A stretch of DNA of 64,000 nt from Escherichia phage ECML-606-1: the sequence record OL631484.1. One strand, 5' to 3'. Shown piece by piece: positions 13,811-63,078 of the stretch. The notes under the pieces were generated by a model, which was not told where the DNA came from, did not search any database, and saw only the letters and a list, made by a program, of their open reading frames with translations. A program made the translations under genes and the position numbers. Position 1 is the first letter of the stretch, and each line of letters starts with the position of its first letter.

Positions 13811-13860
13811 TTCCGGGATCTCTCTTGTTCAGGAATAGCGGATATTCTGGAATCACTACG

Positions 13861-13890
13861 GGGAAATAAAAAGCCCGGACAGTACCGGGC
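13861..13890 (-). terminator. rho-independent terminator
   Basis: GCCCGG-ACAGTA-CCGGGC hairpin followed on minus strand by TTTTTATTT. Confidence 0.5.
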
Positions 13891-13898
13891 TGGAAGGT

Positions 13899-14153: not shown

Positions 14154-14581
14154 TACCGCCCCTTTTTATGTGTCGCTGAGCGGTGCTGTCCGCTGTAGCG
14201 ATGGTTTCCGTATGCCTGCTCGTCACGCCAGTTAATCTGCTGCTGACGCTTACCGGAATAAGCGGAGTAAGGCGGTTTTGGCTGGAGTTTAGCCATTACA
14301 TGCCAAACGTCATAGCAGGCATCATGGAAACGGCGATCCGTTGTCGAGTCCTTGAAATTGCTGTACATCATTTCCGCGACGTACTGCGCCAGCATGGATT
14401 GCAGCTCCTCGCGGTTGACGAACACTCGGAACTGGTAATCGCGGTGATCGTGCGTGACCACTTCTTTGGTCGGGAAGTATTTGTTCAGATGCTCTTTACG
14501 GCGAGCACGTACTTGGATCACTTCCGGGTCTTGTTTGTCTACGACAGCAGACAGGAAGCCATCAGATAAAATCAGCCACAT
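14153..14581 (-). CDS. hypothetical protein
   Basis: 142 aa; ATG at 14581 with GAGGA SD; promoter immediately upstream. Confidence 0.45.
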   Translation of the reverse strand: MWLILSDGFLSAVVDKQDPEVIQVRARRKEHLNKYFPTKEVVTHDHRDYQFRVFVNREELQSMLAQYVAEMMYSNFKDSTTDRRFHDACYDVWHVMAKLQPKPPYSAYSGKRQQQINWRDEQAYGNHRYSGQHRSATHKKGR

Positions 14582-18900: not shown

Positions 18901-21900
18901 GGTGGCAGGGTTGTCGCCTTTCTTCGCCACGTAATCCTGTACAGCCATCAGCGTTTCGAGGTTGTCTTTGGCGTTGTTGAAGACCAGCCCAAGGTCATAC
19001 ATGTTTTTCGGCTTGCCCGGCGCAGCGGTCAGCTTGTCCAGCACCTCAGCCATGTACTCCTTGTACTTGGTACCGTTGATCGTGGTGCTCGGCGTCACGT
19101 TCTGCTCATATTTCATAGCCTCAATGAGCAGCTTTTTGCTGTTCTCATCCTTCGCCAGTGTTGCAGCGATGGCGTAGCCCTGAAAATCAGTTGCCTCGGT
19201 CGAGTAGAAACCAACGTCCGGCTTAATCGGCAGGTTGAGCGGCTTGCCATGCTTTTTGAAGTAAGCCTGACCGATTTCAGACGCAGCGTAGACGTGCCCG
19301 CTGTTCATTTTCAGGATATTGTCGATAACAGTCGTGTACGCGCCCTTATCGCCATGGTTATCCTTGATGAATTCCAGACCGATGCTGGTCGCATCATCGC
19401 CGTTCGCGCCAGCGAGGGCCTGTTTGAGCGCCACAATCTCGCTGCCCGCGCTGCCATTGGCTGAGGTCTCAGGCATATCCTGCTGTAAGATCCAGTGCCC
19501 ATTATGGAAGACCAGAATACCGCCTTTACCCTGCTTGGTATCACCTTCTTTCGGGCCATCCTCTACCAGCCACTTATTGACCTCCTGCTGGTACAGTTTA
19601 ACCTGCACAGCAGCTGGCTCTGAAAGGTGAAGCTCGCTCAGCTCATTAAAGTGCTTGGCGATCACATCAGGATCTGATTCTTTGCCTTTGTGAACTTCTT
19701 CGGCAATGACGTTATAGAGGGTCTGCACTTTCGTGCCATAGGTTTTCACCGTGTCGCTGGTTGGTGATACCAGCGGTTTTTCTGGCTCAGTCCCGTAAGT
19801 CTCACTCCACCACTTACCATAGGCTTTCTTGCCAGCGATAAAGAACTCATTCGCCAGCTCGTTAAACCCATTGTCCTTCATGGCCTCAGCCAGCACCACC
19901 AGCTGCGGCGCATCATGCCCATTCGCCGTCATCCAGTCGCCAGCAATCGCGTCGGCCTGTTTTTCGTCCTTGGCATCTGTCAGCGCATCAAAGGCGCTTT
20001 CCCACATGGCGTAATCATTCAGGATCGCTTTCTTCTCCTGCTTACGCTCATGTTTGGTGGCAATCTGCTCGGATTTCGCCGCAGCCTGAGACTTCTCGGC
20101 CCATGAATCGTACAGCTTCCCGACGCTGGACTCGGAGAAGGCCAGATCGCTACCGTAATAGGTAGACGCCTGCTCAATGAATGCCTCGCCTTTTGTCTTC
20201 GCCCACTCGTTGAACTCAGCCACATCGGCAAAATCCGGCAGCTGCGGCTCAGGGGTTGGCGCACGCTCCTGCTTGATCTGCGGTGGCGTCGGCAGGGATT
20301 TCACGGAGATATCGCCCAGCTCTTTCTTGGCGGCGGTCACGGCTTCGATGATCCACGCGGACAGATCAACCTTCTGGAAGGCATCAATCAGGTTCTGGTC
20401 ATCACGGATCACTGTCACCATGTCGTTGATGTTGTCCACAGCCAGCGCCCAGTTACCCGCGTTGAGGTCATTCTGGATGTCCTCACAGATGCCGTCGATA
20501 AACGCATCACCAGTCTGCGGAGGATTGGAGAAAGTCTTCACTCCCTCAGGCTTAGGCGCAGCAGCAAGGCCCAGAGACTCCGCCAGATTGACCGCAGGCT
20601 CTTTGCCAGCCATTACCTGCTGGTAAACCTCATTCTGCGTGTTGGAGAAGCCGGAGATATGGCCCCAGTCGCCCTTCTCGTTAACCCACATACCAGATCC
20701 CGGATTCTTCGGATCCGCGACGATGACTGCGCTGGTATTGGTCGGGTAAACGCCTGCGTCTGGAGTCGTGGACAGCACGCCATTCCACATGTTCTTGATG
20801 ACGTTTTGCTGCTTCTGGGTCAGGTGATTCGGCTTGCCCAGCTCCACCAGCTCGGTCGGGTACTCGCTATGGTGATAGTCGGAAATGTAGCCCAGATTGT
20901 CCGGGGTTTTGGTGTTGCCACCAAAGCCGATCAGTTTCAGGTACTGTCCCGCTTGGAACGGCTTAGCCAGCGGCTCACCCTTCTTGCTTATAGGCCATGC
21001 GGTCGCGTGCCCCATCAGCACTTTCAGGTACGGCTTACCGTCCTTGTCGTAGGTCTGGATGATTGAGCCTGCGGGCAGGTTCGGCATATCGGAGATCGAC
21101 AGCTTCTGGCCCTTTTTGAACTCACCAGCGACAGGCTGATCCTTGAGCGGCTCGCCAGTCTCCTGATTGTGCCAGCGACCGTCTTTGAAAACCTGCATCC
21201 CGTTTTTGCCCATGCGGGTATCACCTTCCTGCGGGCCTTCCTCAGCCCGGACGGTTTTCTGCTGCTCAACCTCTGCGCTGGCCTTCTGATCCTTTTCTGC
21301 CTGGCTAAACTGGCCCAGCATTGGATGCACGGCGTCTTTGCCGATAACCACTTTGATATCCGGGTAGCCCAGCGCTGCCAGCGCGTTATTCGCAGCCTTG
21401 GCGACTTTGAGCCCGTAGGTGTTTTTTCCGTATGTCATCGCCAGAATGCCGTTGATGTTGCCTACTTCGCCAGCGGCCTTGATAGCGGCGATCTGCGCGT
21501 TGTAGCTCTTGGCATTCTTAATGTTCTCCGCGACGGCGAACTGGCTCCAGTCGATAGCGTCCATGGCCTTCTTCGACACGGATGCTTTCGGGGCTGGCTT
21601 GCCTTCGGCGGTGTCCGGCTGCGCCGGGGAGGTAGCGATGATTTCAACCGCGCTCAATGGGCTCGGCTCCTCGGACTGCACCAGCGGCTTATTCGGATTC
21701 TCACCCGTCAGCAGCGCCAGCTTTTGCCCGTAGAGGTTCAGCAGCTTTTTGCTGTTCGGGGTGATGCCCTTCCAGCTTTTCGCCTTGCTCTTGATAGCTT
21801 CCAGCTCCGCCAGACTGGTGGCGTCGATGACCTTCTGAGCCTGCGCCTCATACGCGGTGCGCACGCCAGTGGAGTTTTTGCCGGATTCAAATTTAGGCAT

Positions 21901-22764
21901 GACGATTTCGCCTGGCTTCGGTGCTTCGGCAGCAGGTGTTGAGGCTTTCTGGACTTCTTCTTTAGCTGCGTTTTTTTTCTCAGGTGAAGGAGACGGCCCA
22001 TCTTTTGGCATAATAAGGCTTAGTTTTTTTGCTCCACCCGGTTCAGTTTTAAAGTATCCAAACTGCGTACCGTAATTCTCAATCGCGTGCAGCTGGTGCT
22101 GTTTTAAATCACCAATCTCAATAGTGATGACGTTATTTTTTACTTTGTATGCTTCAATCGGTGGCAGACCTAGGTAACTCTCAATTCCAGAAACAATGGC
22201 TTGTTGTTTGGCTGTCAAATTACCTGTAGCTGGTTTTGTTGCTGCCTTTGCCTCTTGCGCTACGGCTTCAATGGCCTGCTCAGCCATCTGATCGACGGTC
22301 TCAGGCTCTCTCTCGTATGTGGCGATGGCAGGGTGCTCACCCGCTTTCTGGCCCGCGCTGACCTTCTCCTGCGAGCCCATTTGCTCCAGCAGATAGTTGG
22401 CAATCGCCACCAGCTTTTTACCGTGGGTGTTCACGCCATAGGATGATCCCAGAATCGCCGCGATATCGCCGTTGGCAGCGTGCTGCAACAGGTTCGGGAC
22501 GTGTTTCTGGTTGAAATGCTTAATGTCTTTGTTGGTCGCCTCTTTCTCAGCAGGATAGAGCAGCTGGCTCGACTCCTCCTTAGGCATGGCGTAAGGCTTA
22601 TGGCCTTTGCCACCAGCTTTAGGGTGCGCGGCTTTCGGGGCGTTCTTGACGCCCTTCATGTCCGGCGTGGTTTTCTTCCAGCGCCCATTGATCAGAGCAT
22701 AGCCCGCTTGGTGGGCGAATTTTTGATTAAGTGCTTTTGCGAGGACAAGCATGGTGGCCACCAT
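15991..22764 (-). CDS. giant virion-associated protein with C-terminal ADP-ribosyltransferase-like domain
   Basis: 2257 aa; C-terminus has TFGRKF, IMSTSIS (STS) and GEKEIILPP (ExE); recurring internal motifs EGDTKxGxxGxxVFxNGRW and ILGSSYGVNTHG / ILAMTYGKNTYG. Confidence 0.65.
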   Translation of the reverse strand: MVATMLVLAKALNQKFAHQAGYALINGRWKKTTPDMKGVKNAPKAAHPKAGGKGHKPYAMPKEESSQLLYPAEKEATNKDIKHFNQKHVPNLLQHAANGDIAAILGSSYGVNTHGKKLVAIANYLLEQMGSQEKVSAGQKAGEHPAIATYEREPETVDQMAEQAIEAVAQEAKAATKPATGNLTAKQQAIVSGIESYLGLPPIEAYKVKNNVITIEIGDLKQHQLHAIENYGTQFGYFKTEPGGAKKLSLIMPKDGPSPSPEKKNAAKEEVQKASTPAAEAPKPGEIVMPKFESGKNSTGVRTAYEAQAQKVIDATSLAELEAIKSKAKSWKGITPNSKKLLNLYGQKLALLTGENPNKPLVQSEEPSPLSAVEIIATSPAQPDTAEGKPAPKASVSKKAMDAIDWSQFAVAENIKNAKSYNAQIAAIKAAGEVGNINGILAMTYGKNTYGLKVAKAANNALAALGYPDIKVVIGKDAVHPMLGQFSQAEKDQKASAEVEQQKTVRAEEGPQEGDTRMGKNGMQVFKDGRWHNQETGEPLKDQPVAGEFKKGQKLSISDMPNLPAGSIIQTYDKDGKPYLKVLMGHATAWPISKKGEPLAKPFQAGQYLKLIGFGGNTKTPDNLGYISDYHHSEYPTELVELGKPNHLTQKQQNVIKNMWNGVLSTTPDAGVYPTNTSAVIVADPKNPGSGMWVNEKGDWGHISGFSNTQNEVYQQVMAGKEPAVNLAESLGLAAAPKPEGVKTFSNPPQTGDAFIDGICEDIQNDLNAGNWALAVDNINDMVTVIRDDQNLIDAFQKVDLSAWIIEAVTAAKKELGDISVKSLPTPPQIKQERAPTPEPQLPDFADVAEFNEWAKTKGEAFIEQASTYYGSDLAFSESSVGKLYDSWAEKSQAAAKSEQIATKHERKQEKKAILNDYAMWESAFDALTDAKDEKQADAIAGDWMTANGHDAPQLVVLAEAMKDNGFNELANEFFIAGKKAYGKWWSETYGTEPEKPLVSPTSDTVKTYGTKVQTLYNVIAEEVHKGKESDPDVIAKHFNELSELHLSEPAAVQVKLYQQEVNKWLVEDGPKEGDTKQGKGGILVFHNGHWILQQDMPETSANGSAGSEIVALKQALAGANGDDATSIGLEFIKDNHGDKGAYTTVIDNILKMNSGHVYAASEIGQAYFKKHGKPLNLPIKPDVGFYSTEATDFQGYAIAATLAKDENSKKLLIEAMKYEQNVTPSTTINGTKYKEYMAEVLDKLTAAPGKPKNMYDLGLVFNNAKDNLETLMAVQDYVAKKGDNPATYQDIVKAAGDNVAHIPVLQSILKDSINMHGVPQGIPKASYKGDSMADADALDGLAAMAMLAKYTDSPEMKEAVLNSVKESAYALMANQGTDVVKMSMTDYAISTMTFVQDQITGAEEPAPAPEPAAPELGNIDLKLLDDIKSIAETKTGLQKVVKASVACKEYYDANPDKVDAVSTIKSVLIINDFTPVAIEGILTAIKNTVAEEDAKKADEGQKEGDGPKEGDMKPGANGMLILKNGRWVRANPDEIPAPDFAALGLSAWQQDHYMKYVDNLKAKLTKGGGTKGVIMQKADGSMLIYGEFGMKIKVSTEYGPTAPGKKALAQYASMMLMANGIKVKSGYNPEVNGTYAMNGVAQLMNATAATSNPAENGLAADGPMEVKKYQWKKKEPISVDEWTVTGGNQGGSNEGMKMKDADGQEWYVKFPDNEEHAKAEVLAAKLYSAAGLSAQDAMIVTKDGKMAIASKWENIKKAKTHAALAKAKGMLEGFAVDAWLGNWDVVGLAKDNVQLKDDGTIHRVDAGGSLMFRAQGAKKEFGPVVKELESLMDPKMNANSAAVFGGMTEADIAASVSKVLAISDAKIAHMVNQYGPGDEKAKKELVETLIKRKEYLAEKYPEAEQIIKMQKFKPEKISTPPDFLNWSGVGKSGPSSKEFLNKGNHDAAQAIYSAALTGDPEAIRGLTAPTFDKDTGAVTGQVPVLDHPSQHIKGYAMQAINEIKSQLTGHEAEQFRIGGDHPLYSMHEEYKPENWSGNDADKIGNLLVLGHPGIVEPEDLGITKTTFKAGTLTTNTYAKAAQEVWEKLPMTQKQAVQAYTGSSYKQMNSGLWKGNPSAEAKAAAQALSGMGHEISPGTTFGRKFSLGSGDLSKLKASVGKVIMEPAIMSTSISPDVWSGNIHLKMTAGPGVKGIYAGAGSLPSGGSISHHTGEKEIILPPNTRLLITKVNESGTKDADGFGGSGMTVVECIILPSV

Positions 22765-28558: not shown

Positions 28559-28587
28559 AATTATTTACGGCATACGTGACGCATCAA
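28559..28587 (-). promoter_or_regulatory. sigma70-like promoter TTGATG-N17-ATAATT with CGTCACGTATGCCG element in spacer
   Basis: minus-strand hexamers; overlaps stop codon of methyltransferase gene. Confidence 0.35.
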
Positions 28588-30095
28588 AAGGCATCGTCAT
28601 CTTCATCAGGATCCGGCAGGTGCCGATCCTCGGTCTCCTCCGGGAATTCCTCTCCGGTGTAGAAGTGGACGGCCTTACGCCCGGTCAGGTTCTGCCAGCG
28701 ACGAATCGCCACATCAGCAAAGCCCAGATCGAGCTCCATCACGCGTGCGCATACGCCCATTCGCTCGGCGGCCACCAGTGAAGTACCAGAGCCGGAGAAG
28801 GGATCCACCATGATGTCATTCAGGCGCACGGTGTTCTTCATCATGCGCTCCCACAGCTCCACGGGCTTCTGCGTCGGGTGCAGGTCGCTGCGGTCAGGAC
28901 GCGGCACGCTGACCACGCTGCCCAGCATTGACTCCACCTTGGCGTCGCCTTCCACCCGCATGATGAGATCGCCGTACTGGAAATACCAGTTACCCTCGGC
29001 ATCCTGTTTGAATGGGCTTGAGTCGCCAAACTCCGCGACGGTCGTTTGCTTCCTGCCACCGTGCCAGCGGTGCTTGGCACCCTTGCGCCAGCCGTACAGG
29101 ATTGGTTCATGGATGCTTTGGAAGTCAGCCATGCCCAGTGTCATGCTGTTCTTCTTCCAGATGACATTCTGGGAGAAGTGGAAACCGACCTTTTCAAACG
29201 CCCAGCGCAGGCCATGGGCCATCTTGTCGGAGTGGCTGATATAGGTCACGCCGCCCGGCTGCATCGCGTCATAGGCGCAGCTCAGGACATTGACGAGGAA
29301 CTGATTAAAGTCCTCCTCGTTTTTCCAGTCGTTAGCGATCCCGCCAGTGCGCGAGCGCTCGCCTCCGATGGCCTTATCCATGCGCTTATTCTTCTTGCCC
29401 ACATCGACGTTATACGGGGGATCGGTCAGCATCATGTTGGCCTTCTCGCCCTGCATCAGCGCCAGCCAGCTTTCCGGCTGCTCAGCATCGCCAACATACA
29501 GGCGATGAGCGCCCAGCACCCACAAGTCGCCCGGACGGCTCTTTGGCTCGTCAGGAAGCGGTGGCGCATCATCGGGATCGCTGTCACCTCCTCCTCCCTC
29601 CATCGGCGGCAGCTTCATGATCTCGTCCAGCTGCTCAGGGTCGAAGCCGATAACATCCAGATCGTAGTCCAGATCAGCCAGGGCATTCATTTCGATGCGC
29701 AGCATGTCCATGTTCCACTCGGACGCCCGGCCCAGCTGGTTATCCGCGATGATGTACGCGCGGCGCTTAGCCTCATCCCAGCCAGTGCAGTCCAGCGTCG
29801 GCACCATGCCAATAGGGATCGGTGTGCCATCCGGGAAAGCAATTTGCTTGCCCTCGCTGTACAGCTTCATCGCTGCCAGCTGGCGTCCATGGCCTGCCAC
29901 AATCCCTTGCTCATCGACGAGGATGGCGTTAGTCCACCCGAATTCAAGCATTGACGCGGCGACCTTCTGGACGTGCGCCGGGCTATGGTCGTTTGAGTTG
30001 TTCACGTAGGGGATGAGGCTATCAACCGGGCGCAGCCGGATCATCGGGGGGATCACGTCCAGCCCCAACATCTTGTTAAAATCTTTATCAGCCAC
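28584..30095 (-). CDS. DNA methyltransferase with N-terminal ParB-like nuclease domain
   Basis: ParB/Srx-like VAGHGRQLAA; methyltransferase motif IV LTDPPYNV before motif I VDPFSGSGTS (beta-class N6A/N4C order). Confidence 0.7.
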   Translation of the reverse strand: MADKDFNKMLGLDVIPPMIRLRPVDSLIPYVNNSNDHSPAHVQKVAASMLEFGWTNAILVDEQGIVAGHGRQLAAMKLYSEGKQIAFPDGTPIPIGMVPTLDCTGWDEAKRRAYIIADNQLGRASEWNMDMLRIEMNALADLDYDLDVIGFDPEQLDEIMKLPPMEGGGGDSDPDDAPPLPDEPKSRPGDLWVLGAHRLYVGDAEQPESWLALMQGEKANMMLTDPPYNVDVGKKNKRMDKAIGGERSRTGGIANDWKNEEDFNQFLVNVLSCAYDAMQPGGVTYISHSDKMAHGLRWAFEKVGFHFSQNVIWKKNSMTLGMADFQSIHEPILYGWRKGAKHRWHGGRKQTTVAEFGDSSPFKQDAEGNWYFQYGDLIMRVEGDAKVESMLGSVVSVPRPDRSDLHPTQKPVELWERMMKNTVRLNDIMVDPFSGSGTSLVAAERMGVCARVMELDLGFADVAIRRWQNLTGRKAVHFYTGEEFPEETEDRHLPDPDEDDDAF

Positions 30096-31950: not shown

Positions 31951-32823
31951 CTACTCGCCAGAGCTAGGGCAGACGTGAACCGAATCACTGGCGTAGCACA
32001 GCAGGCATTTCGGGCAGTGCATCACATGGGATGTCTTATGGCTAACCAATGGCACCGCGCAGGTGTGAGGTGTCCCTGCTTGGTAAACAGCTCCACAGTG
32101 CTTGCAGCTTTCTGTGTGAACTGATCCCTGCCAGTGTTGCAGGTTGTTGTTTGGGTTCCACGGGCTCTTTGGATCCTTCCAGTCGAATGGCGTAACGAAC
32201 TCGCCGGGGCGCAGCTCAACAGCGTTTTTCGGTGCCTGATTTCCCCAGCTATCCCATCCCGGATAAGCGTCGCGCGCGAACAGCTCAATGCGCGGCACAT
32301 CGCCGTATAGCTCCTCGATGCGGTGGAAAATCTCTTTCGGCTTCTGGGAGTGCTCGCCCAGACAGGAGAAGATGATCTGGCGCACGCCGTTACTGACGCG
32401 CTCCAGACCTTTCCCGCGCACGGCGATCAGGCAGTCCTCGGAGTTGGCCCGGCTGTAGTTGCCACCGTTGATTTTTACCTCGGAATTCAGGAAGTCCAGC
32501 ATGTCCTCCCAGTCGAAGAATTCCGACTTGTCCAGCTTGCGGTTGAAGCGCTCCCCAGCGTTCTTGTTGAACTTCACCCACGTAAAGCCCTTCATGGTGC
32601 GCACATCGAAGCCCCACGCCTCAGCCAGCGCGATAGCCTCCTGCGCGTGGGTGGAGGTGTACCACATAATCAGCACAGCATCGTCATCAGCCAGCGACCA
32701 GACCGGGAGGCGCTTGATGTCCTCTTTCTTCATGGTCAGGTAGTGGTTTTCAGCGGCACCGTTGCTGATTGTGTTGTCGTAGTGCCATGGCGGATCAGCC
32801 AGGATAACTTTGTACTTAGCCAT
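31951..32823 (-). CDS. MT-A70-like adenine methyltransferase
   Basis: N-terminal ILADPPWHY (DPPW) motif; Cys-rich C-terminus. Confidence 0.6.
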   Translation of the reverse strand: MAKYKVILADPPWHYDNTISNGAAENHYLTMKKEDIKRLPVWSLADDDAVLIMWYTSTHAQEAIALAEAWGFDVRTMKGFTWVKFNKNAGERFNRKLDKSEFFDWEDMLDFLNSEVKINGGNYSRANSEDCLIAVRGKGLERVSNGVRQIIFSCLGEHSQKPKEIFHRIEELYGDVPRIELFARDAYPGWDSWGNQAPKNAVELRPGEFVTPFDWKDPKSPWNPNNNLQHWQGSVHTESCKHCGAVYQAGTPHTCAVPLVSHKTSHVMHCPKCLLCYASDSVHVCPSSGE

Positions 32824-33381: not shown

Positions 33382-33858
33382 TTAATCCTTGAAAAAAGTT
33401 ACCCAGTGGGTGTTGGCCCGGATGCCGGACGGATGACCAAAGGCGGGCTTCATTTCCGCCAGTTTAAGCAGCTCGCGGGTTGGCACATGCAGCTCATTCC
33501 ACTTGAAGATCAGCGTGCCGTGTGGCTTGAGCACGCGCCATGCCTCAGCGAATCCGGCGCGGATGTCCTCGCGCCATGTCTTTTTGTTCAGGATGCCGTA
33601 CTTCTTGCCCTGCCAGCCATTAGGGCCGCACTTGAGCAGATGAGGCGGGTCGAACACGATGAGGCTAAACGTGGCGTCGGCAAACGGCAGCGCCCGGAAG
33701 TCAGCCACGATGTCGGGATGGATTTTCAGCTCCCGGTCATCGCATAAGATATGCTCCTCGTCCCTGATATCCATGAAGACGACGCGAGGATCCTCCCGGT
33801 CGAACCAAAACATGCGCGAACCGCAGCACATGTCGAGAATGGGTTTGTTAGTGGTCAT
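33382..33858 (-). CDS. putative SAM-dependent DNA methyltransferase
   Basis: ILDMCCGSRMF (motif I-like) and LIVFDPPHLL (DPPH). Confidence 0.5.
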   Translation of the reverse strand: MTTNKPILDMCCGSRMFWFDREDPRVVFMDIRDEEHILCDDRELKIHPDIVADFRALPFADATFSLIVFDPPHLLKCGPNGWQGKKYGILNKKTWREDIRAGFAEAWRVLKPHGTLIFKWNELHVPTRELLKLAEMKPAFGHPSGIRANTHWVTFFKD

Positions 33859-34091
33859 GCGGCCTTCTTTTTGGTTTTGTGGTACACGGCCCAGCTCAGG
33901 GCGTTCAGCTTATCCATCCCTTTGCGGTCATACATGAAGATGGTCGGTACGCCGCGCTCAGTCAGGCGTCCATCCTCGTTGCGCGGGTTGGCGTGCTCCT
34001 CTTTGACCTGCCGCTCCAGCTCGGCAAGGTCATCGAAAGAGTGCTGGGCCAGCAAGTGCGCTTTCCAGCCGTAATTACGAATTTTCGCCAT
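33855..34091 (-). CDS. hypothetical protein
   Basis: 78 aa ORF, ATGA-type coupling. Confidence 0.35.
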   Translation of the reverse strand: MAKIRNYGWKAHLLAQHSFDDLAELERQVKEEHANPRNEDGRLTERGVPTIFMYDRKGMDKLNALSWAVYHKTKKKAA

Positions 34092-34509
34092 CTTCCGGCT
34101 CCACGTACTTGAATACGCGATAGCGAAGCATATTCACGCCATCAGCTTGGAAGCGGCTGGACTGAGAGCCCAGATATGGATCCACGTACCAGCCCGGTTC
34201 CTGACAGTTGTCCAGCAGCCATTGCTCCAGCTGCTCACGGTTCAGATAGCCATCCGGCTCAGCAACGCGACGATCCTCGCATACGCGATGCTTCCCAACG
34301 TGGGCCAGCCCGCGAACGGTAAAGGTGCAGTCGATACGGGCCTGCCCGCTAATCGCGCGGGTGAAGTCTTCCAGCGACAGCTCCACTTCTAAAAACTGCC
34401 CTTTGCTCGCATCATCAATCATCGTGATGGTCATGCACTCTTTGCCGTCGCCGCGCGAAGGGCGTCCCATGGTAATTTTGCCTTTATGCTTCACGTTCTC
34501 TCTCCTCAT
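34075..34509 (-). CDS. hypothetical protein
   Basis: 144 aa ORF in gene chain. Confidence 0.4.
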   Translation of the reverse strand: MRRENVKHKGKITMGRPSRGDGKECMTITMIDDASKGQFLEVELSLEDFTRAISGQARIDCTFTVRGLAHVGKHRVCEDRRVAEPDGYLNREQLEQWLLDNCQEPGWYVDPYLGSQSSRFQADGVNMLRYRVFKYVEPEDGENS

Positions 34510-35425: not shown

Positions 35426-35468
35426 ACAAAAAAGGCCCGCGTTAGCGAGCCTTATCAAGATCTGGAAG

Positions 35469-35939
35469 TTATCGGATGGTGTGGAATGTTGCGCCAGATT
35501 CATTCATCACAAAAACTTCATCACCCGGATAGAGCAGCTGATACATCGTGCCGGACAGCCACTTATTGTCAGCGTGATGCGGGCGGTCAGGGCTTTCGGT
35601 GTTAGAAAGCAAGATCCCGATACAATTGGCGAGGCACTGGAACGGACGGCGTGCGGTGTAATGCTCCTCAGGGCAATCAGGCTGTGTACACTCGGCGTCT
35701 TTCCAAGTCTGGCAGAAATATTCCAGGTAATCGTAAGCCGGGCAATCAGTCCATTTTTCAGCTGGTGGCATGAATCTTGTGCCTGTCACGGCTTCCTCGT
35801 TTTTGTCTGCGGCTTCGCGGTTGTAGCATTCAAGAAGCATTTCCATGCACTGCTCGAACTGCGCAGAGTCTGGCAAGGCAATGCCGATGATATCAGTAGG
35901 GAAGCTGATAAAGTTTTGGATCTTGGTCTTGTAAATCAT
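35469..35939 (-). CDS. hypothetical protein (Cys-rich)
   Basis: 156 aa. Confidence 0.4.
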   Translation of the reverse strand: MIYKTKIQNFISFPTDIIGIALPDSAQFEQCMEMLLECYNREAADKNEEAVTGTRFMPPAEKWTDCPAYDYLEYFCQTWKDAECTQPDCPEEHYTARRPFQCLANCIGILLSNTESPDRPHHADNKWLSGTMYQLLYPGDEVFVMNESGATFHTIR

Positions 35940-36005
35940 GGTAAGTCTCCTGAGTCGTATCGAAGTCGATTAAAGCCGCATCGCTGCGGCATCAGGAGAA
36001 TACTG

Positions 36006-42061: not shown

Positions 42062-42533
42062 AGCTCCAGTAAGTTACGGTATTCGAGTCGATGCTGCGAT
42101 CCTCCAGCTGGATGCCGACGCCAGAAAGCGCGGTCTCTACTGATTTACCAACGCCCAGATATTTATCGGTCTCGTCCCATACGTGAACCTGACGATTCTC
42201 TACCGGGCGCGTTACCGGGAACTTGGCGCGGTGCAGCTGGTGCCGGGTGTATTTCGGATTGCCTTTGTCGATGGTGACAAGGTTGCCATGCTGGTTTGTG
42301 ACATACAGGCCCATAGGCAGGAAAACGCGTTTAAACAGGTCGTGCCATTTACCTTCGGTAATGGTCGGACGCCCGCCTTTGAGGTGCGTCGGGCCGCAGG
42401 CGCTGCACAGCTTCATGCCTTCGCGCTCCGGCGCATAGCTCCAGTCAAACGAGCTCGGCGCGTGGTAGAACATGCCGACGCCATAGGCGGTATTATCAAC
42501 GCAGCCGCAGCGCTCACATTGGAAGATGCTCAC
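42033..42533 (-). CDS. hypothetical protein with N-terminal zinc ribbon
   Basis: CERCGC...CSACG Cys pairs. Confidence 0.4.
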   Translation of the reverse strand: MSIFQCERCGCVDNTAYGVGMFYHAPSSFDWSYAPEREGMKLCSACGPTHLKGGRPTITEGKWHDLFKRVFLPMGLYVTNQHGNLVTIDKGNPKYTRHQLHRAKFPVTRPVENRQVHVWDETDKYLGVGKSVETALSGVGIQLEDRSIDSNTVTYWSYADEQNQPG

Positions 42534-42814
42534 AGTGATTTCTCCAGCTTAGCCCCCTGACGGCGCTCCCACTTCCCGCGTTTCAGTTTGGAAATAGCGG
42601 AACAGGCTTCCAGCGTGCCGCTGCGAAACGGACAGTCTTTGCTATCACGGAACTTGTTAAACTCGCGCTCCATGATGCGACGGCAGGCTTTTCCGCGTGG
42701 CTCGAAGTCCTTCGCGGTGTAACGCTGATCGGCGTCGATAGGGCATTTGTTGGAACAAACAGCCTGGATAAAGTAGCTCATCACCAGCTGCTTGAGATTT
42801 GATGCTTTACTCAT
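42530..42814 (-). CDS. hypothetical Cys-containing protein
   Basis: 94 aa ORF. Confidence 0.35.
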   Translation of the reverse strand: MSKASNLKQLVMSYFIQAVCSNKCPIDADQRYTAKDFEPRGKACRRIMEREFNKFRDSKDCPFRSGTLEACSAISKLKRGKWERRQGAKLEKSL

Positions 42815-47843: not shown

Positions 47844-48185
47844 TCACTTCGGTAGCTCGGTGGCCACAATCTCAGCCGGGAAGTCAGGGGAGGGGTGCGG
47901 ATTCACCACGCAGCGGATCCCCATATTGACCGGGGCTGCTGATTTGGCACGGTTTCGGGGCTTGCCCATGATACCGCAGCAGCAGAGCACGCTGGCGTCG
48001 CGTCCATATGCCACAGCGCCGCAGTGGGTGCAGCGGTAGTTCCGGTCTTTGCCCTCTCCCTCAGAGCTCACGATACGCCCAAAACACTTCTTGCAGATGT
48101 GGGGCTCAAGCGCCCACAGGTCTGAGGTCTTTTTTTTATGTTGCGAGTCTGTCATTGGCTCGCTGTTTTTGGGTGATGCGCACAT
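47844..48185 (-). CDS. zinc-finger protein
   Basis: CKKCFG...CTHCG plus CCCG motifs. Confidence 0.4.
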   Translation of the reverse strand: MCASPKNSEPMTDSQHKKKTSDLWALEPHICKKCFGRIVSSEGEGKDRNYRCTHCGAVAYGRDASVLCCCGIMGKPRNRAKSAAPVNMGIRCVVNPHPSPDFPAEIVATELPK

Positions 48186-48730
48186 TAAAACAATTCTCCT
48201 TGCACTGGAACGACTCCGTAGCCATCTGGTCTGACCACTCGAAGCCCAAAATATACCTGCCGCGTGTTGTCCCGTAGTGCCCCGATAATCAGCTCATCGA
48301 CTGACACAGCGCGTTGCTTACGAACCGTCACCACGTTCCCCCCGGTCATGACCGTAACGGCATGAGGCACCAGAGGTGGATGGTTGAGGGGCTTGCGACC
48401 ACGGGCATTCTTGCCGATGACGCATTCCCTCTCACGGTTCCAGCAGCTAACGCAGATGTCGTGCCCGATGAGCCTGAGGCCAGTACGTTGACAGCGTGAA
48501 CAGATGGGGATTCCGCACAGTGAAGACTGAGCAATATCACCCTCTCCGGCGTGATGGGCACCGATGGGGCATGATTTGCACAGCTGGGAGCATTCAGGAG
48601 ACTTGTTGTTATTGGTTTGAGACCAAAGGGCGGCACAGGACGAGACCTGCAAGGAGGCGCTGCGTCTGGTGCAATGAAACATCGGTTTACCGGGTAGTTC
48701 CGGCACTGTGAAGTATTCGATTGGCTCCAT
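48185..48730 (-). CDS. Cys-rich hypothetical protein
   Basis: 181 aa with multiple CxxC pairs. Confidence 0.4.
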   Translation of the reverse strand: MEPIEYFTVPELPGKPMFHCTRRSASLQVSSCAALWSQTNNNKSPECSQLCKSCPIGAHHAGEGDIAQSSLCGIPICSRCQRTGLRLIGHDICVSCWNRERECVIGKNARGRKPLNHPPLVPHAVTVMTGGNVVTVRKQRAVSVDELIIGALRDNTRQVYFGLRVVRPDGYGVVPVQGELF

Positions 48731-48805
48731 GAGAAAAATCTCACCCGTTCGGCTTAGTCGAGCAGAGTATAACGCTTTTTTGCGGCGACTCCAGTAAATC
48801 GCTAA

Positions 48806-49173
48806 CCGTTCCAGCGTTCCGGGGCTGCGGAACGGTCTGCGGAACGGTTTTTACCCCCTAAAATGGCACCACAAATAATAAATAATAATAATAATATCAA
48901 TAGATTAGTAAGTAGTAGTAGTAAGTAGTATATGTCACCGTTCCACCGTTCCGCACTTTGCGGTGTCATATACATAGCGCAAGGAAATTTCGATTATTAT
49001 GTAATGTATCTATTACTATCATATTCATTACACTGTATGTCTGTTTCTTTATTCCTATATATCTCTCGCGCCAAAATAGCGGAACGGTGGAACGGTGGCG
49101 CTTTTCTTATGTTTATCAAACAGATAACCGTTCCGCTACCCGTTCCGCAGTGTTCCACCGTTCCACGGAACGG
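48806..49173. repeat. array of at least 11 GGAACGG/CCGTTCC heptamer iterons in both orientations
   Basis: copies at 48806, 48829, 48841, 48938, 48946, 49081, 49089, 49128, 49140, 49158, 49167. Confidence 0.8.
48875..48930. repeat. trinucleotide microsatellites (AAT)n and (AGT)n
   Basis: AATAATAAATAATAATAATAAT and AGTAAGTAGTAGTAGTAAGTAGTA. Confidence 0.8.
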
Positions 49174-49236
49174 CTGAGAATGGACAAAAAAAAGCCAGCT
49201 ATGCGCTGGCTTATTTATTACGGTGTAATTAATTCA

Positions 49237-49662
49237 TTAGAAATATCCATCAGCATCAGGGCGGACGGCAAGGCGGATTTTTTCGAGGGCGTCGGTAGCG
49301 ATGTGTAACTGATTAATTACGTCATCACGAATCTCTTTCACCTTACCCGGCTGCACATCATCCATCATGCTGAACATGGCGAAAGCGCCGCGCACAAATT
49401 TATCGGTGTAGCCCTTCTCGTCTTTATCCAGCGGAATGGATTTATTGAGCGCCGTCACGGTGCGCTCGAAGTCCTCATAAATATCAGCGCGTGGCGTTTC
49501 AGGTGCCGGAATGGGGCGGGAGCTCGTCACCAGTTTGCCGCCAATGATCTCGGCGTCGCCATTAATCCACTGGTGAACCTGCGGGGCGTGGACGCCCATA
49601 GCGGTGGCGAAAGCGGTTTTATTGCCCGCGTAATACAGCTCAATATAGGTGACTAATTTCAT
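49237..49662 (-). CDS. HTH DNA-binding protein (Cro/CI-type)
   Basis: TAFATAMGVHAPQVHQWINGD helix-turn-helix; ATG 49662 with GAGGA SD (track ORF starts at TTG 49701); iteron array lies directly downstream. Confidence 0.55.
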   Translation of the reverse strand: MKLVTYIELYYAGNKTAFATAMGVHAPQVHQWINGDAEIIGGKLVTSSRPIPAPETPRADIYEDFERTVTALNKSIPLDKDEKGYTDKFVRGAFAMFSMMDDVQPGKVKEIRDDVINQLHIATDALEKIRLAVRPDADGYF

Positions 49663-49664
49663 CA

Positions 49665-49865
49665 CTATTTCCTCAGAATAAACGCCCGGAACACGGGCCA
49701 AAACAGAATGTCGTACATCAGCCAGAACACCAGCAGAGCGCAGGCCAGATACCAGAGATCGCGGTTGCCAGCCGCGTCATAAATCATGTAGCCGGGGAAG
49801 GCGAGCAGGCAGAAACAAATCAGCACGCTCAGCAGCTCACAGGCGCGGTTGATTGCCTTAATCAC
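49665..49865 (-). CDS. small membrane protein
   Basis: 66 aa, two hydrophobic helices. Confidence 0.4.
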   Translation of the reverse strand: MIKAINRACELLSVLICFCLLAFPGYMIYDAAGNRDLWYLACALLVFWLMYDILFWPVFRAFILRK

Positions 49866-57216: not shown

Positions 57217-57246
57217 AAATAAAGCCCCTTACGGGGCTTTTTTTAT
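57217..57246. terminator. bidirectional terminator at convergence of plus-strand operon and primase gene
   Basis: AAAGCCCC-TTAC-GGGGCTTT hairpin flanked by A-run and T8. Confidence 0.65.
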
Positions 57247-60128
57247 AGCGGTAAATCTTCCTGAATCGCGCCTACATCGAGGCATTCATGGATTGGAATG
57301 GCTACGCACGCCTTGGCACCGTCGCCGCGCACTACGCGCCGTTTAGTGCGCTCAGCGCCGGGGATTCGCATCAGCTGGCCCGGCAAGTTGGTAGAGAATG
57401 ACTGCTCAGCGATCATCTTTTTAAGCTGACCGGGCATACTGACAAGCACCAGCACGCGCCCGTCAAACTCATCGTATTTCATGCCCAGATAGCTCAGCGC
57501 CGTGATGGCGTCATTCATCTGGATGCTGCCCGGAATATCCAGCTTGGCGTTATGCTTCCCGGCATAGACGCGAGCCAGCAGGTCACGCACGGAATACTCA
57601 ATCGTGTTGTATTTAACGAGACTTGAGAGCAGGAAGGATAGCGCCTGCTGGGCATCATCATCTTCTTTCTCCGGCAGGGAATCCGACCAGTCGAATTGTT
57701 CCAGGTATGCCAGAGCCACTTCCTCAGACGGCGCGACATCATGATCCAGCATGTAGTCACCCGCCATAAGAGTACCCAGCTGGTCAGTGTTACGCTGCGA
57801 GCCAAAGGCTTTCAGGCCGATGCGCCGGAACACGTTCACAGCTTTCAGGATCTCAGGCATCAGCATGACGCTGCGTGATACCCAGCGATCAGAGAATGAT
57901 TCATCCTCAAGCTGGAGGCGCATTTCGTACTCGGTATCAAGCCAGACTTGCTTTGCTGCTGCGTCGGTTGGGTCGGAGGCGTTGAGCTCCAGCAGGGTAA
58001 AGCGGTCGCTATCGGCTTTCTTGTCGATTTGCGGGTTGATGGAGCCGAACATAAACATGCTGCTGATTAGATAGCTTTGCTCGTCACCTGAGGCTGAGCC
58101 TTTCGCAGTTTTAGCGCGGGACAGGCTGGACGCCTGCCGGGCCATCGTCATGACCGCAGCCATGCTTTCCTTGCTCTTACGGTCGTTACTTTCCGCCTCA
58201 TCCATCCCTACTGGCTGCGACTTATTACGCAGCGTCTGACGGATCCCCGCCTCTGACGAGTTACCCTGGAAATACAGCATCGAATCGCCAAGAATCCCGG
58301 CGTAATGGTTGAGCACGGTGGATTTACCGGAGCCTGCTGGCCCTGTGATCCAGATGTGCGGACGCCACGGGAGGATCCCGCAGATAGGCGCGAGGAATGT
58401 CCAGCCACAAAGCAGGTTGGCGAACTGCGGACGCCGCCAGCGCAGGCGGTTGGCAATATTCCGCACTTCCCGCGCCTGCACATCCGTTAAGGCCGTCATA
58501 ATCTTCACCAGTGGCTTGGTGATGGTGTAGACGTAATTGCCGGGGATGAAGCGCAGCGGGTGATCTTTTCCGTTGTAAATCGCCCCGGTGCCATAATGGA
58601 AAATCAGCGCGTCACCATCACGCCACGCGCCCGGCGCTCGCACCTTGGCCTCGTCGAACGGGCCAACGATGTGGGAGATTTTGATCAGGTCGTTTTGCGC
58701 GGTGGCAATCTCGAACTGATCTTTAGAATTGAGGTAATGATCATCCCACCACTCCTTTGGAGCCAGCATATAGAGGTTGCTGGCCTGCATCTGGTTGGTT
58801 TTCAGGTTCACGACTTCTTTCATCGCGTTGACGTAGAAGAAGTAATGGAGGCTGCGGTGCCCCAGAAAACGGAAATGCGGGTTATTGGAGTAAATAGCCC
58901 GGTCAATGCTGGCATTCTGGTTCATTTTCTCAGTGTCGAGAGCCTTGGCCCATGGGGCTGGCTCCTCTCCTGAGGCGTCGGCTGGCTCCTCGTCTTCATC
59001 GTCATCCAGAGGGCTTGGCAGCACTGGCGGAGGAGGATTAAGCACGATATCAAACTGAGCAGCTACCACGTCCAGACCTTCACGGCAGTGCAGATCGTTG
59101 AAGTCGGTAGGCTCGCCTTCCAGTGACGCGAACTGCGGGAAGATAGCCTGACCGCCCAGAATCTCAGCAGCCTCTTTCCCCTTTTTACGCCCGGCGTTGT
59201 TAGGAACGGATTTAACAAAGGTGAACTGGTCATTGTCGCCGCCGATCAGGAAGCGGGGATTTTTCCCAGACTTTTTCAGCTTCTCTTTGAGGGCCTTGGC
59301 GACGTTGACAAGGTTCCCGGCATCCAGACAGACGATAACGGCGTGCCCGGTCGCTTCATGGATAGAGGCCCCGGTGGCGTAGCCCTCGCACAGGATGAAA
59401 ACCATGCGGTCATTGATGGTCTTCGGCTTGCCGATCATGTGATAGCGGCCCATCTTCGCGCCGCCCGGTAAAAATAGCTTGTTGGTCGCGTCCTCAGGCA
59501 CCGATGAAGGCGGTACGATGGCTTGCAGTGACCAGATTTTTTTCGGGTTGAACACATCCACCAGCGGCATCAGCAGCGCGGTATCTGTCAGCTTTTTCCA
59601 ATATCCTCGGTCTTCTTTCTCTACCGGAGGCACCCAGACCGACCACGGGCCAACGCGGAGCCCGTAGGCTTTAACCTGCTTGGCTTTCAGATAGTCATGG
59701 TCTGCTGGCACATCTTCACTGGCAGCATCCCAGATATTCGTTGCGATGACGGATTTCTTTTCTTCCTTCTCGGCACGCTCTTTCTGGCGCAACGCATCAC
59801 GCGCAGCGCACTCAGCTTTAAACTTAGCCTTTTCCTCAGCCGACAGCGGGGCAAAGTTGCCTTCCATCTGCCATTTAATGCCTTCGGGAGAAGTTTTGCG
59901 GTGATCGCCAAAGACACCAGCCGGGCGATCATCGTAATAGAATTTGAACCATCCGGGCTCGCCATGGTTGGCATCCTCAGGACGGAAGCGATCAGGCGGT
60001 GAGCCTGCGAGAGAAGGTAAAATTTCGCCGTGGTATTCAATACCAGCATCGAACATAGCAGCGCGAAAGGCTTCGGTAGCGTCTGCTAGTGTTGGTCTTT
60101 CTGAATAGTTATTAGATTCGTTAGCCAC
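57243..60128 (-). CDS. DNA primase-helicase (TOPRIM + P-loop NTPase)
   Basis: 961 aa; TOPRIM-like ILCEGYATG and FLIGGDNDQ; Walker A ITGPAGSGKST; GTG start at 60128 with AAGGA SD. Confidence 0.6.
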   Translation of the reverse strand: MANESNNYSERPTLADATEAFRAAMFDAGIEYHGEILPSLAGSPPDRFRPEDANHGEPGWFKFYYDDRPAGVFGDHRKTSPEGIKWQMEGNFAPLSAEEKAKFKAECAARDALRQKERAEKEEKKSVIATNIWDAASEDVPADHDYLKAKQVKAYGLRVGPWSVWVPPVEKEDRGYWKKLTDTALLMPLVDVFNPKKIWSLQAIVPPSSVPEDATNKLFLPGGAKMGRYHMIGKPKTINDRMVFILCEGYATGASIHEATGHAVIVCLDAGNLVNVAKALKEKLKKSGKNPRFLIGGDNDQFTFVKSVPNNAGRKKGKEAAEILGGQAIFPQFASLEGEPTDFNDLHCREGLDVVAAQFDIVLNPPPPVLPSPLDDDEDEEPADASGEEPAPWAKALDTEKMNQNASIDRAIYSNNPHFRFLGHRSLHYFFYVNAMKEVVNLKTNQMQASNLYMLAPKEWWDDHYLNSKDQFEIATAQNDLIKISHIVGPFDEAKVRAPGAWRDGDALIFHYGTGAIYNGKDHPLRFIPGNYVYTITKPLVKIMTALTDVQAREVRNIANRLRWRRPQFANLLCGWTFLAPICGILPWRPHIWITGPAGSGKSTVLNHYAGILGDSMLYFQGNSSEAGIRQTLRNKSQPVGMDEAESNDRKSKESMAAVMTMARQASSLSRAKTAKGSASGDEQSYLISSMFMFGSINPQIDKKADSDRFTLLELNASDPTDAAAKQVWLDTEYEMRLQLEDESFSDRWVSRSVMLMPEILKAVNVFRRIGLKAFGSQRNTDQLGTLMAGDYMLDHDVAPSEEVALAYLEQFDWSDSLPEKEDDDAQQALSFLLSSLVKYNTIEYSVRDLLARVYAGKHNAKLDIPGSIQMNDAITALSYLGMKYDEFDGRVLVLVSMPGQLKKMIAEQSFSTNLPGQLMRIPGAERTKRRVVRGDGAKACVAIPIHECLDVGAIQEDLPL

Positions 60129-60812: not shown

Positions 60813-61334
60813 TTAGAACGGGATATCATCATCGAAGTCCATCGGTGGCTCAGAGCCTTGTCCGCCTTGTTGCTGGTTTTGTGGTGGACGCTGCTGCTGG
60901 CGTGGCTGCTGATTGCCCTTAGGCTGCTGAGGCTGGCCCCAGCCCCCTTGTTGCTGGCCTCCGCCTTGGCCTTGTCCGCCCTGCTGGCCTTTGCTGTTCG
61001 GGCCCTTCTCACCAAACTGGAAGGTATTAGCAAGGATCTCGGTCGTGTATTTCTTCACGCCGTCCTGCTCCCACTCGCGCGTCTGGAGTTTTCCATGCAC
61101 TAAGATCTCATCGCCTTTGCGCATGTACTCGCCAACTACCTCAGCGGCTTTGTTCCATAATACAACGCGGTGCCACTCAGTTTTTTCTTTCTGTTCGCCC
61201 GTGTTCTTGTCGCGCCAGCGCTCGGAAGTCGCCACGCTCAGGGTACAGGTGGCAGCGCCGCCTGCGGTGTAACGTACCTCAGGATCCGCACCTAAGCGGC
61301 CCTGAACAATAACCATGTTAATTGATGCGCCCAT
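60813..61334 (-). CDS. ssb: single-stranded DNA-binding protein
   Basis: OB-fold N-terminus ([17 protein letters not shown]), Gly/Gln-rich linker, acidic tail DFDDDIPF. Confidence 0.85.
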
Positions 61335-61347: not shown

Positions 61348-63078
61348 TTAGAAATATTGCGGCTCGTCGCCGTTTTGTTGCGGTTTGAAATAATCCAGCA
61401 CGCTGGCACCATTTTTGATAGCTGAATAGACAACGCGCATGGCGCTGATATCGTCCATAGTGAAGTTGCCGACCGGGATCCCCATGTGGGCTTCCAGCTG
61501 CTCCTCGTTGACGCCAAAGGCTGCAAACGCGGTAATAAGGCGCTCGCAGCGGTCTTTGAGCATCTGCTGCTCCTGCTCGATCTGGAGATAAACTTTCTTC
61601 ATGCGGGCTTCCAGCATACGGTGAGCCCACTGCGGCTTATAGCCACGCTCAGCAGCCAGCGCCAGCAGCTCGTCAAGTGTTTCAGCTCGCGCGGTCTCTT
61701 TGCGCTTCTGCGCGGACACGCGACGGGCTTCCTCCTTGGCGGCTTCCTTCTGGCGCTTCTTCATCATTTCCGGCGTCAGCTCCAGCATGTTCTCGTCGGA
61801 GTGATCCAGCTTGAGGGCGACCGCACGCTCAATCTCCGCGCCGCAGTCCGGGCAGACCATATCGACGCCGGACGCCGGGTTATTGAGGCGGTGGATGCGC
61901 CCGGCTTCTTTGCCCTCGCCGCGATAGAAGACATAGAAGCATTTACCGCACTGCACCAGCGCACTGCTCGCGGTGCTTTTCTTCTCGGTAAAGTCCATAT
62001 CGCTGTCCAGCGACCATTCCCTTTCCATTTCTGCCGGGCCGTGCTCGAAGATCATCCCGGCATGGTCGAGGACGTAGCAGCATTCTTTGCCCGGTGCCGG
62101 GCGCAGGCCGCGTCCGATAACCTGCAAATAGCTGGAGAGGGACATGGAGAGGCGCAGGAGGATAATCACCTCGATCTCCGGCACATCCACGCCCTCGATC
62201 AGGATGCCGACGAAAGCGACCATCAGCAGCTCGCGCCGGGCCAGTCTGCCTAGCACGTCAGCGCGGCGCTCGTCGTCATCCTCACCGCAGAGCACTTCTG
62301 CCGGAATGCCTGCCCGGCTGAATTCATCCGCTACGTGAGTGGCGTGCGCGATGGTGACGCACCATGCGATCCCCGGCTTGCCATAGCACTTCGCCCGGTA
62401 CTGCTTAACGGCGTCGCCGTTGAGCGCTGGCGTGTCCATGGCCTCCTCAACCTGCTGCTGGTTGTAGTCGCCCATCTTCGTGGTGAACTGCGAGGTATTG
62501 ACGCGGGTCTCACCGACGAAATAGCGCGGACGTACCAGGAATCCGCGACGAATCAGCTCACCAATAGAGATAACCTGAATCAGGCGATCAAAGTGCCCGC
62601 CATACTCGCGGCCCAGCGGCTTGTTATCCAGACGGCAAGGGGAGCCAGTAACGCCCAGCACTTTGGCGTTAGGCCAGTGGGACAGAATTTTATGGTAGGT
62701 CGCTGCCGCCGACAGATGCGATTCGTCGATAACGATGATGTCAGGCGTGAAGGGGCATTTTTTGAGGCGGCGAGCCAGCGACTGAATAGACGCCACCTGC
62801 ACCAGATGATGATACTGCTCACGGTTCCCAGCCATGATAATGCCGTGGGGAATACCGAAAGCGGACATTTTAGCCGACGCCTGCTTAATCAACAGATCGC
62901 GGTGCGCCAGCACCAGCACGCGTCGGCCTTTTAATGCCGCGTTTTTGGCTATCTCGCAGAAAACTACAGTCTTACCTGCACCTGTAGCCATGACCAAAAG
63001 CACACCGCGAACCTCGCGGAAGGCGACGCGTGTCGCGCTGACAGCATCGCCCTGATAATCACGCAGCTCAAACGCCAT
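61348..63078 (-). CDS. DEAH-box (SF2) helicase
   Basis: Walker A LVMATGAGKT, motif II VIDESH, C-terminal zinc-ribbon CGKC...CPDCG. Confidence 0.7.
   Translation of the reverse strand: MAFELRDYQGDAVSATRVAFREVRGVLLVMATGAGKTVVFCEIAKNAALKGRRVLVLAHRDLLIKQASAKMSAFGIPHGIIMAGNREQYHHLVQVASIQSLARRLKKCPFTPDIIVIDESHLSAAATYHKILSHWPNAKVLGVTGSPCRLDNKPLGREYGGHFDRLIQVISIGELIRRGFLVRPRYFVGETRVNTSQFTTKMGDYNQQQVEEAMDTPALNGDAVKQYRAKCYGKPGIAWCVTIAHATHVADEFSRAGIPAEVLCGEDDDERRADVLGRLARRELLMVAFVGILIEGVDVPEIEVIILLRLSMSLSSYLQVIGRGLRPAPGKECCYVLDHAGMIFEHGPAEMEREWSLDSDMDFTEKKSTASSALVQCGKCFYVFYRGEGKEAGRIHRLNNPASGVDMVCPDCGAEIERAVALKLDHSDENMLELTPEMMKKRQKEAAKEEARRVSAQKRKETARAETLDELLALAAERGYKPQWAHRMLEARMKKVYLQIEQEQQMLKDRCERLITAFAAFGVNEEQLEAHMGIPVGNFTMDDISAMRVVYSAIKNGASVLDYFKPQQNGDEPQYF

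Follow-up and report, generated by a model that had tools for sequence, protein, structure and literature searches.

A candidate iteron-type replication origin in Escherichia phage ECML-606-1, probably read by the phage's own primase-helicase

The alpha protein of P4 unites a Toprim primase, a helicase and a C-terminal origin-binding domain. The P4 origin needs two sites, ori and crr, and its octamer-type boxes are found both as direct and as inverted copies; this system was reportedly treated by Ziegelin and Lanka in 1995, a work cited in PMC7145576. In bacterial origins, the DnaA-trio is a run of TA(G/A) trinucleotides that adjoins the DnaA boxes, beside the region to be opened. Short repeats are also found at packaging sites of headful phages: known pac sites use them to flank the cut, as in the hexamer repeats of P1 pac, and SPP1 has pacL and pacR. 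In SaPI origins, six to twelve iterons of 5-6 nt surround an AT-rich centre, and two or more of them on either side of the centre point in opposite directions (PMC9371898). Their reader is a self-loading helicase, Rep or PriRep, which recognises the iterons through a winged-helix domain at its C-terminus and in SaPI5 (PriRep5) is fused to a primase; iteron specificity varies among related elements, following the C-terminal part of the helicase (PMC9371898).

The locus compared here with these systems belongs to Escherichia phage ECML-606-1, called W below. The window is the whole stretch of its DNA that was analysed, 64,000 nt in length, and L-numbers (L004, L005, L026 and so on) denote the sequences or contigs of relatives that were compared with W. 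The window represents a tailed-phage genome, with genes for a major head protein (308-1840), a portal (4899-6710), a GpA-type large terminase (TerL, 8300-10915) and a tail fibre (10961-13810), as well as the replication genes for a primase (57243-60128), an SSB (60813-61334) and a helicase (61348-63078, 576 aa). The primase is a 961-aa protein that contains a Toprim_3 domain at residues 244-351 and a Walker-A motif (P-loop) at about 590-640, and it matches the PHROG 'DNA primase' at 1e-167.

The only close annotated relative of W is Enterobacter phage phiT5282EW. More distant family members, of about 86-95 kb, comprise Yersinia fHe-Yen8-01, Aeromonas ST4, Pseudomonas Dolphis, Jeremy and Touem01, Bordetella PHB04 and Morganella Mecenats66. 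These relatives are myophages, and many metagenomic contigs also fall into the family. Further relatives are found on contigs of about 93-102 kb in assemblies of Salmonella and E. coli isolates (for example L023, E. coli, 99.9 kb). One of them, L028 (Salmonella GCA_032323975.1, 100.9 kb), is the only relative with a Rep_3-like gene, which it carries together with ParA (1532-2401 and 13597-14250), suggesting a phage-plasmid branch of the family. In L026, the helicase gene (4165-6957) encodes 930 aa, compared with 576 aa in W, with Hint and LAGLIDADG matches, which suggests that an intein has been inserted.

The minus-strand genes at 48185-48730 and 49237-49662 are separated by a noncoding gap of 506 bp (48731-49236). 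The ORFs called mechanically inside this gap are not kept in the closest divergent relative. The heptamer GGAACGG is present in 20 copies in the window, 11 of them within 368 nt (48806-49173) and the other 9 in the remaining 63.6 kb. Five of the exact boxes in the array lie on the plus strand and six on the minus strand. None of the shuffled windows reached 20 copies (shuffle mean 7.5) and, with 0.054 copies expected per 381 nt from the background rate, the Poisson probability of at least 11 is about 3e-22. The sequence-only reading had described a gap of about 500 bp with (AAT)n and (AGT)n runs, and in it an iteron array of at least 11 GGAACGG copies in both orientations; both descriptions were borne out.

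In extended form, the box reads gYGGAACGGt. Tandem repeats detected by TRF include a 12-bp doublet, CTGCGGAACGGT x2, at 48825-48848, 8-bp tandem pairs at 48936-48952 and 49081-49098, and the trinucleotide runs (AAT)7.3 at 48874-48896 and (TAG)7.7 at 48906-48930. The array also contains nested inverted repeats (48936-48959/49074-49097 and 48825-48849/49126-49150). Each genome examined has one box cluster. No DnaA boxes (with up to one mismatch) and no GATC clusters were found in the array, a sigma-70 scan of the AT-rich cores gave no convincing promoter inside them, an Rfam scan of 48300-49700 returned sub-threshold terminator-like matches only, and a megablast search against plasmids gave no match. 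The GGAACGG copy at 60198, 70 nt upstream of the primase start, was discarded as an autoregulatory iteron because it is also conserved in phiT5282EW.

On the minus strand, the element runs from a terminator towards the p181 gene in the order cluster A, AT-rich spacer, pair B, core 1, inverted pair C, AT-rich tract, cluster D and promoter/leader. The features and their neighbours are the following:

57243-60128, minus strand: primase-helicase, 961 aa, with its C-terminal region at residues 716-961
49237-49662, minus strand: HTH-like protein, 141 aa, which rides along in the swapped block and does not track the box type
49188-49216, minus strand: hairpin terminator of the HTH-like gene, GCCAGC-loop-GCTGGC and then a T run; distal boundary of the element
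49126-49175: distal iteron cluster A, with boxes at 49128 (minus), 49140 (minus), 49150 (minus, degenerate, GGAACAC), 49158 (minus) and 49167 (plus)
49098-49125: AT-rich spacer, 68% AT, containing the quasi-palindrome TTATCAAACAGATAA
49079-49097, plus strand: iteron pair B, GGAACGGTGGAACGGT, with an 8-bp period; an arm of the 24-nt inverted repeat that flanks core 1
48956-49078: AT-rich core 1, 123 nt, 68% AT against 44% in the window, with ATATA motifs on its flanks; possibly the segment that unwinds
48936-48955, minus strand: iteron pair C, CCGTTCCACCGTTCC, inverted partner of pair B
48850-48935, minus strand: AT-rich tract, 86 nt, 76% AT, holding the (AAT)n and (TAG/AGT)n runs
48804-48849: promoter-proximal iteron cluster D, with boxes at 48806 (minus), 48814 (minus, degenerate, GGAACGC), 48829 (plus) and 48841 (plus)
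48731-48803, minus strand: leader and promoter stretch, with a -10-like TATACT at 48771-48766
48185-48730, minus strand: p181, a Cys-rich protein of 181 aa with several invariant CxxC motifs and a C-terminal QGELF
48175-48184, minus strand: putative packaging-initiation cut motif TGTGCGCATC, just 3' of the p181 stop, at the position homologous to the Mecenats66 and Touem01 termini

The 68% AT core is bracketed by the pairs at 49081/49089 (plus strand) and 48938/48946 (minus strand), and the 76% AT tract by pair C and cluster D. This combination of iterons and AT-rich cores supports the earlier proposal of a cis element recognised by a protein. The arrangement resembles SaPI/PICI origins in its many short iterons, its AT-rich centre, its two or more opposed boxes per side and the primase-helicase encoded by the element itself; here too, the boxes differ between related genomes and, in the close clade, change together with the C-terminal part of the proposed initiator. 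In contrast to SaPIs, where the origin lies immediately downstream of the helicase gene, the array is located 8 kb downstream of the primase-helicase gene, it has two AT-rich modules rather than one, its boxes measure 7-10 bp, and the proposed initiator has no detectable homology to SaPI Reps and is encoded by a myophage of about 95 kb, not by a satellite. With P4, the locus shares a Toprim primase-helicase with a C-terminal part, and direct and inverted boxes at a site apart from the gene. It differs from P4 in having a single cluster per genome, not ori plus crr, and in the lack of a P4-family HMM match.

The array (48804-49175) is probably the replication origin, of the iteron type, with the phage-encoded primase-helicase as its reader. 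Most likely, it is an origin of an already known kind, newly recognised in a little-studied group of phages of about 90 kb. According to the proposed mechanism, the 961-aa protein would bind the boxes, of about 10 bp in their extended form, via its C-terminal region. The oppositely oriented box pairs that bracket core 1 and the AT-rich tract would load helicase assemblies, which would melt both AT-rich segments, and the primase domain would then prime on the exposed strand, where the G-free (CTA)n(TTA)n strand may give start sites. The same protein probably also modulates the promoter of the p181 operon, since the promoter-proximal boxes lie about 45-90 nt upstream of the inferred transcription start. 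Cumulative GC skew along the complete phiT5282EW genome was uninformative, with a minimum 5-10 kb from the array, and the scanned window proteins include no Pfam match to a Rep_3 or lambda O-like initiator. If correct, this would be the first candidate origin for widespread, almost unannotated phages of about 90 kb in enterobacteria, Pseudomonas, Bordetella and Aeromonas, and it would extend to the phage-plasmid relatives in Salmonella and E. coli.

The architecture of the element is conserved across the family. Each p181 homologue with sequence available is preceded by a noncoding region of 0.4-0.85 kb with the same element order, in which the position of core 1 is conserved, and the p181 gene is always downstream of the array. 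The box itself changes from lineage to lineage:

GGAACGG: W and L004
GTSACAG: phiT5282EW and L005
TGGAACA: fHe-Yen8-01
CTGGACA: L026
CGTTACC: L027
TGTTACC: L023
GGTWACC: Dolphis, Touem01 and L007-L015
GGATACC: PHB04
CGCTACC: ST4
TGTAACA: Mecenats66 (weak array, 3 copies)

In relatives, the boxes are likewise concentrated in the array, with 11 copies inside against 1 outside in Dolphis and 22 against 6 in ST4. Within the close clade, their distances from the p181 start agree to within a few bases (about 350-379 for pair B, 201-236 for pair C and 70-125 for cluster D). The lineage boxes are variants of a yGTtaCC-like theme, and the copies in one genome all change together, as expected of sites for one protein with drifting specificity.

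The comparison of close relatives indicates which protein this might be. The DNA of W and phiT5282EW is 85-97% identical along the window, apart from a few blocks: the tail-fibre N-terminus, a few small indels, an array block (48788-49594) that comprises the array and the C-terminal 118 aa of the HTH protein, and part of the primase gene (57263-59050). The stretch 48731-48788 is nearly invariant in W, L004, phiT5282EW and L005, and the homology breakpoint at 48788 is the proximal edge of the swappable array. The swapped part of the primase (encoded by 57243-59050) is everything after the Toprim domain. When L026 is compared with W, the breakpoints 48788 and 59050 appear again, and its boxes and its primase C-terminal part are each of a third type. 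The L004/L016 contig has the W boxes, an HTH protein 100% identical to that of W and a primase 99% identical, and L005 combines phiT-type boxes with a primase whose last 239 aa are closely phiT5282EW-like and only 50% identical to W. Box type and primase C-terminal type, encoded in two unlinked blocks, change together, in three types each with identical breakpoints; the evidence for this co-variation is the three module types of a single close clade and a comparison that covers the 64-kb window, with about 31 kb (about a third of the genome) outside it. Such near-identical phages, differing in boxes and post-Toprim primase at the same breakpoints, offer a natural experiment on origin-initiator specificity.

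In the close clade, the last 131 residues of the primase are its most diverged ordered segment (33-46% identity versus 53-84% in the N-domain), and only a 60-residue linker diverges more. At long range, primase C-terminal identity does not predict the box type: ST4 and Dolphis, 55% identical in this part, have different boxes, and the boxes of phiT5282EW and fHe-Yen8-01, 60% identical, differ at two positions. In the p156 segment (35440-35975), W differs from phiT5282EW while phiT5282EW and the L005 phage agree, and this may be a further segment that co-varies with the boxes.

The gene next to the array (49237-49662) had been labelled a Cro/CI-type HTH gene and proposed as the source of the binding protein. 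The label can be kept tentatively, as HTH-like, from a Pfam YdaS_toxin match below the cut-off (E 0.0012) and a match to phrog_10103 (unknown function). As the box reader, the protein was rejected. Its recognition helix, compared in six genomes, falls into two classes only (APQVHQWI-like in W, L005, Yen8 and L027; QPN[VL]YPLI in phiT and L026) versus at least six box types, and the helix is identical in W and L005, the L005 protein being of the W class despite its phiT-type boxes. The p181, p113 and TerL proteins were likewise rejected as readers, since they are 97-99% identical across box types; between W and phiT5282EW, whose boxes are unrelated, identity is 98% for p181, 99% for p113 and 96.8% for the TerL region. 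Two W-lineage-only insertions, the mosaic segments p94 (42530-42814) and p144 (34075-34509), were also discarded as readers because phiT5282EW has no counterpart.

A role of p181 as a small terminase or regulator was considered and dropped, with no match in Pfam, PHROG or NCBIfam and an AF2 model (pLDDT 77) without a PDB fold match. Homologues of its N-terminal 120 aa or so, 36-40% identical, are found within larger ORFs of non-mobilizable enterobacterial plasmids of 10-13 kb, for example in pEC22-4 (NZ_CP060895 5279-6568, L024).

An AF2 model of the C-terminal region of the primase-helicase (residues 716-961), built from 18 homologues and with a pLDDT of 85, has a small alpha/beta domain after a helical bundle. 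The entries listed by Foldseek for this model, all of them non-significant, are the DNA-binding domain of vIRF-1 (E 0.25), a winged-helix regulator from an archaeon, Orc1/Cdc6 bound to origin DNA and complexes of RepE with iterons. The predicted fold is compatible with a winged-helix origin-binding domain. Sequence and profile searches of a solved-structure library with the whole primase and with the C-terminal region gave no significant match, nor did NCBIfam, including its P4-family HMM, match the primase. The C-terminal fragment alone found no homologues, whereas the full-length query did. In fHe-Yen8-01 (L018), the depositors marked the primase (440-3325) and the p113 homologue (11800-12144) as 'phage particle associated'; if this mark holds, the candidate initiator travels in the virion.

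The position of the boxes relative to the promoter could also mean that the array serves transcriptional control only, as an operator battery through which a phage regulator switches the long minus-strand operon from p181 onwards, with no origin function. The array does lie between a terminator and a conserved promoter-like TATACT that has no good -35 element, its boxes are placed at about -45 to -90, almost every gene between 53.4 kb and 0.3 kb is encoded downstream of the array on the minus strand, and in distant relatives it stands between divergent gene blocks. However, 370-700 bp with 11-22 boxes and two conserved AT-rich modules bracketed by inverted box pairs far exceed what a promoter needs and carry the signature of an origin. 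Besides, the only co-varying DNA-binding candidate found is a replication protein, and the HTH regulator beside the array does not follow the box type. We regard control of transcription alone as unlikely.

That the array is a centromere, used for plasmid-type partition of the prophage in an episomal state, is far less plausible and would be surprising. Centromeres are arrays of short repeats too, relatives occur on the Salmonella and E. coli contigs of about 93-102 kb described above, one of them with ParA and the Rep_3-like gene, and Touem01 encodes a ParA-like protein. Against this, no operon of ParA/ParB type is present among the scanned window proteins and none for partition adjoins the array, the only ParB-like domain being fused to a methyltransferase 19 kb from the array, and the array is present in all family members, with or without ParA. 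Moreover, AT-rich cores between inverted pairs are not a centromere feature, and the boxes co-vary with the primase-helicase.

One point against the origin reading is a packaging cut, validated in a relative, at a distance of only about 0.6 kb. PhageTerm, restriction fragments and Sanger run-off established that Mecenats66 is a headful packager with a preferred start (Zrelovs et al., PMC9503643). This start coincides with position 1 of the record and precedes by 14 nt the stop codon of the p181 homologue, ORF123. PhageTerm assigned Touem01, which encodes the ParA-like protein, to the 'Headful (pac)' type (PMC11256456); the record of this phage extends 12 nt past the p181 stop. A GCGCA motif is common to the termini of Mecenats66 (G/ATGCGCAC) and Touem01 (GGCG/CGCATTTC), with the slash at the terminus, and to W, where TGTGCGCATC follows the p181 stop. 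The pac cut of W is therefore probably located at the 3' end of p181, at about 48175-48184, some 0.6 kb from the nearest box.

It could be argued that the array is the recognition part of pac, such that a packaging protein binds the boxes and the terminase cuts about 0.6 kb downstream to start the headful series. The termini just described favour this, as does the use of short repeats around a cut at known pac sites such as that of P1. The array has in common with the pac sites of P1 and SPP1 and with the Mecenats66 start that short repeats stand in two flanks near the point where packaging begins. Unlike at those sites, the repeats here do not co-vary with the terminase or their neighbours, the cut is 0.5-1 kb off and the terminase gene is distant, 38 kb from the array. 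W and phiT5282EW, two phages with wholly different boxes, have TerL, p181 and p113 proteins that are conserved, and the segment that does co-vary with the boxes belongs to the primase-helicase. In Mecenats66, the cut is precise to one base and the array, with its three TGTAACA copies, is weak. The metagenomic contigs L006, L009 and L010 end inside or near the array, which would suit a packaging end, but assemblies commonly break at repeats. Pac recognition by the array is thus improbable. The sequence-only reading had offered a replication origin or a cos/pac packaging site; the origin stands as the best reading, and the array as the cos/pac site itself is not supported, given the distant TerL, the conservation of TerL, p181 and p113 across box types and the Mecenats66 cut at the 3' end of p181. 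The cos/pac suggestion does point to a real feature close by. Distinguishing the proposed origin from the packaging start beside it is of use for annotation and engineering in this phage group.

The contig parts that end in or at the array are L006 1-420, L009 1-315 and L010 1-495, and L006 seems chimeric exactly at the (TTA)n run. These ends are probably assembly breaks at the repeats; they may be physical ends.

The AT-rich tract (48850-48935) has a strong strand bias, with nearly no C on the plus strand and nearly no G on the minus strand. In the sense of p181, the tract is a (CTA)n(TTA)n sequence in which 60 nt contain 14 CTA/TTA. The AAT and TAG runs had been described as microsatellites that could mediate slipped-strand variation. 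They are identical in W and the near-identical L004 contig, the two such genomes available, and relatives have (CTAA)n(TTTA)n, (CTA)n(TTA)n or (TTA)n at the same position, in units of 3 or 4 nt. In the enterobacterial clade, the p181-sense strand contains 10-15 CTA/TTA per 60 nt versus 5-7 on the other strand, a value matched by 0 of 200 shuffles; in some distant family members, the tract is weaker or absent. Since the runs are unchanged between W and L004 and the CTA/TTA tract is kept in relatives, the 'microsatellites' are, on this comparative evidence, a conserved element and not a slippage switch. The sole exact match in the 64 kb to the IHF core consensus WATCAANNNNTTR is located at 48895-48907, between the (AAT)n and (TAG)n runs.

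The tract resembles the DnaA-trio in that a run of TA(G/A) on one strand directly adjoins the initiator boxes. It differs in that the array has no DnaA boxes, the units are of 3 or 4 nt depending on the phage, and the proposed initiator is the phage primase-helicase. Bacterial DnaG primases have both d(CTA) and d(TTA) among their documented start trinucleotides, and the gamma-proteobacterial enzymes also use d(CTA) (PMC2978363). Speculatively, this suggests that the tract may be a priming pad for the primase. A more tentative combination, to which we give only low credence, would make the tract a priming or loading track, or a helicase track like the DnaA-trio, and place the origin about 0.6 kb upstream of pac, with replication, priming and packaging coupled. 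If this coupled reading were true, the origin would lie at the last-packaged end of the first headful.

Elsewhere in the window, a 2257-aa protein is encoded at 15991-22764, and its C-terminal 100 residues or so resemble Alt-like ADP-ribosyltransferases of RNA polymerase. Three DNA methyltransferases are encoded at 28584-30095, 31951-32823 and 33382-33858: a ParB-domain/methylase fusion, an MT-A70 enzyme and a class I methyltransferase. Mecenats66 DNA is resistant to SmaI (PMC9503643), which is consistent with heavy genome methylation in the family.
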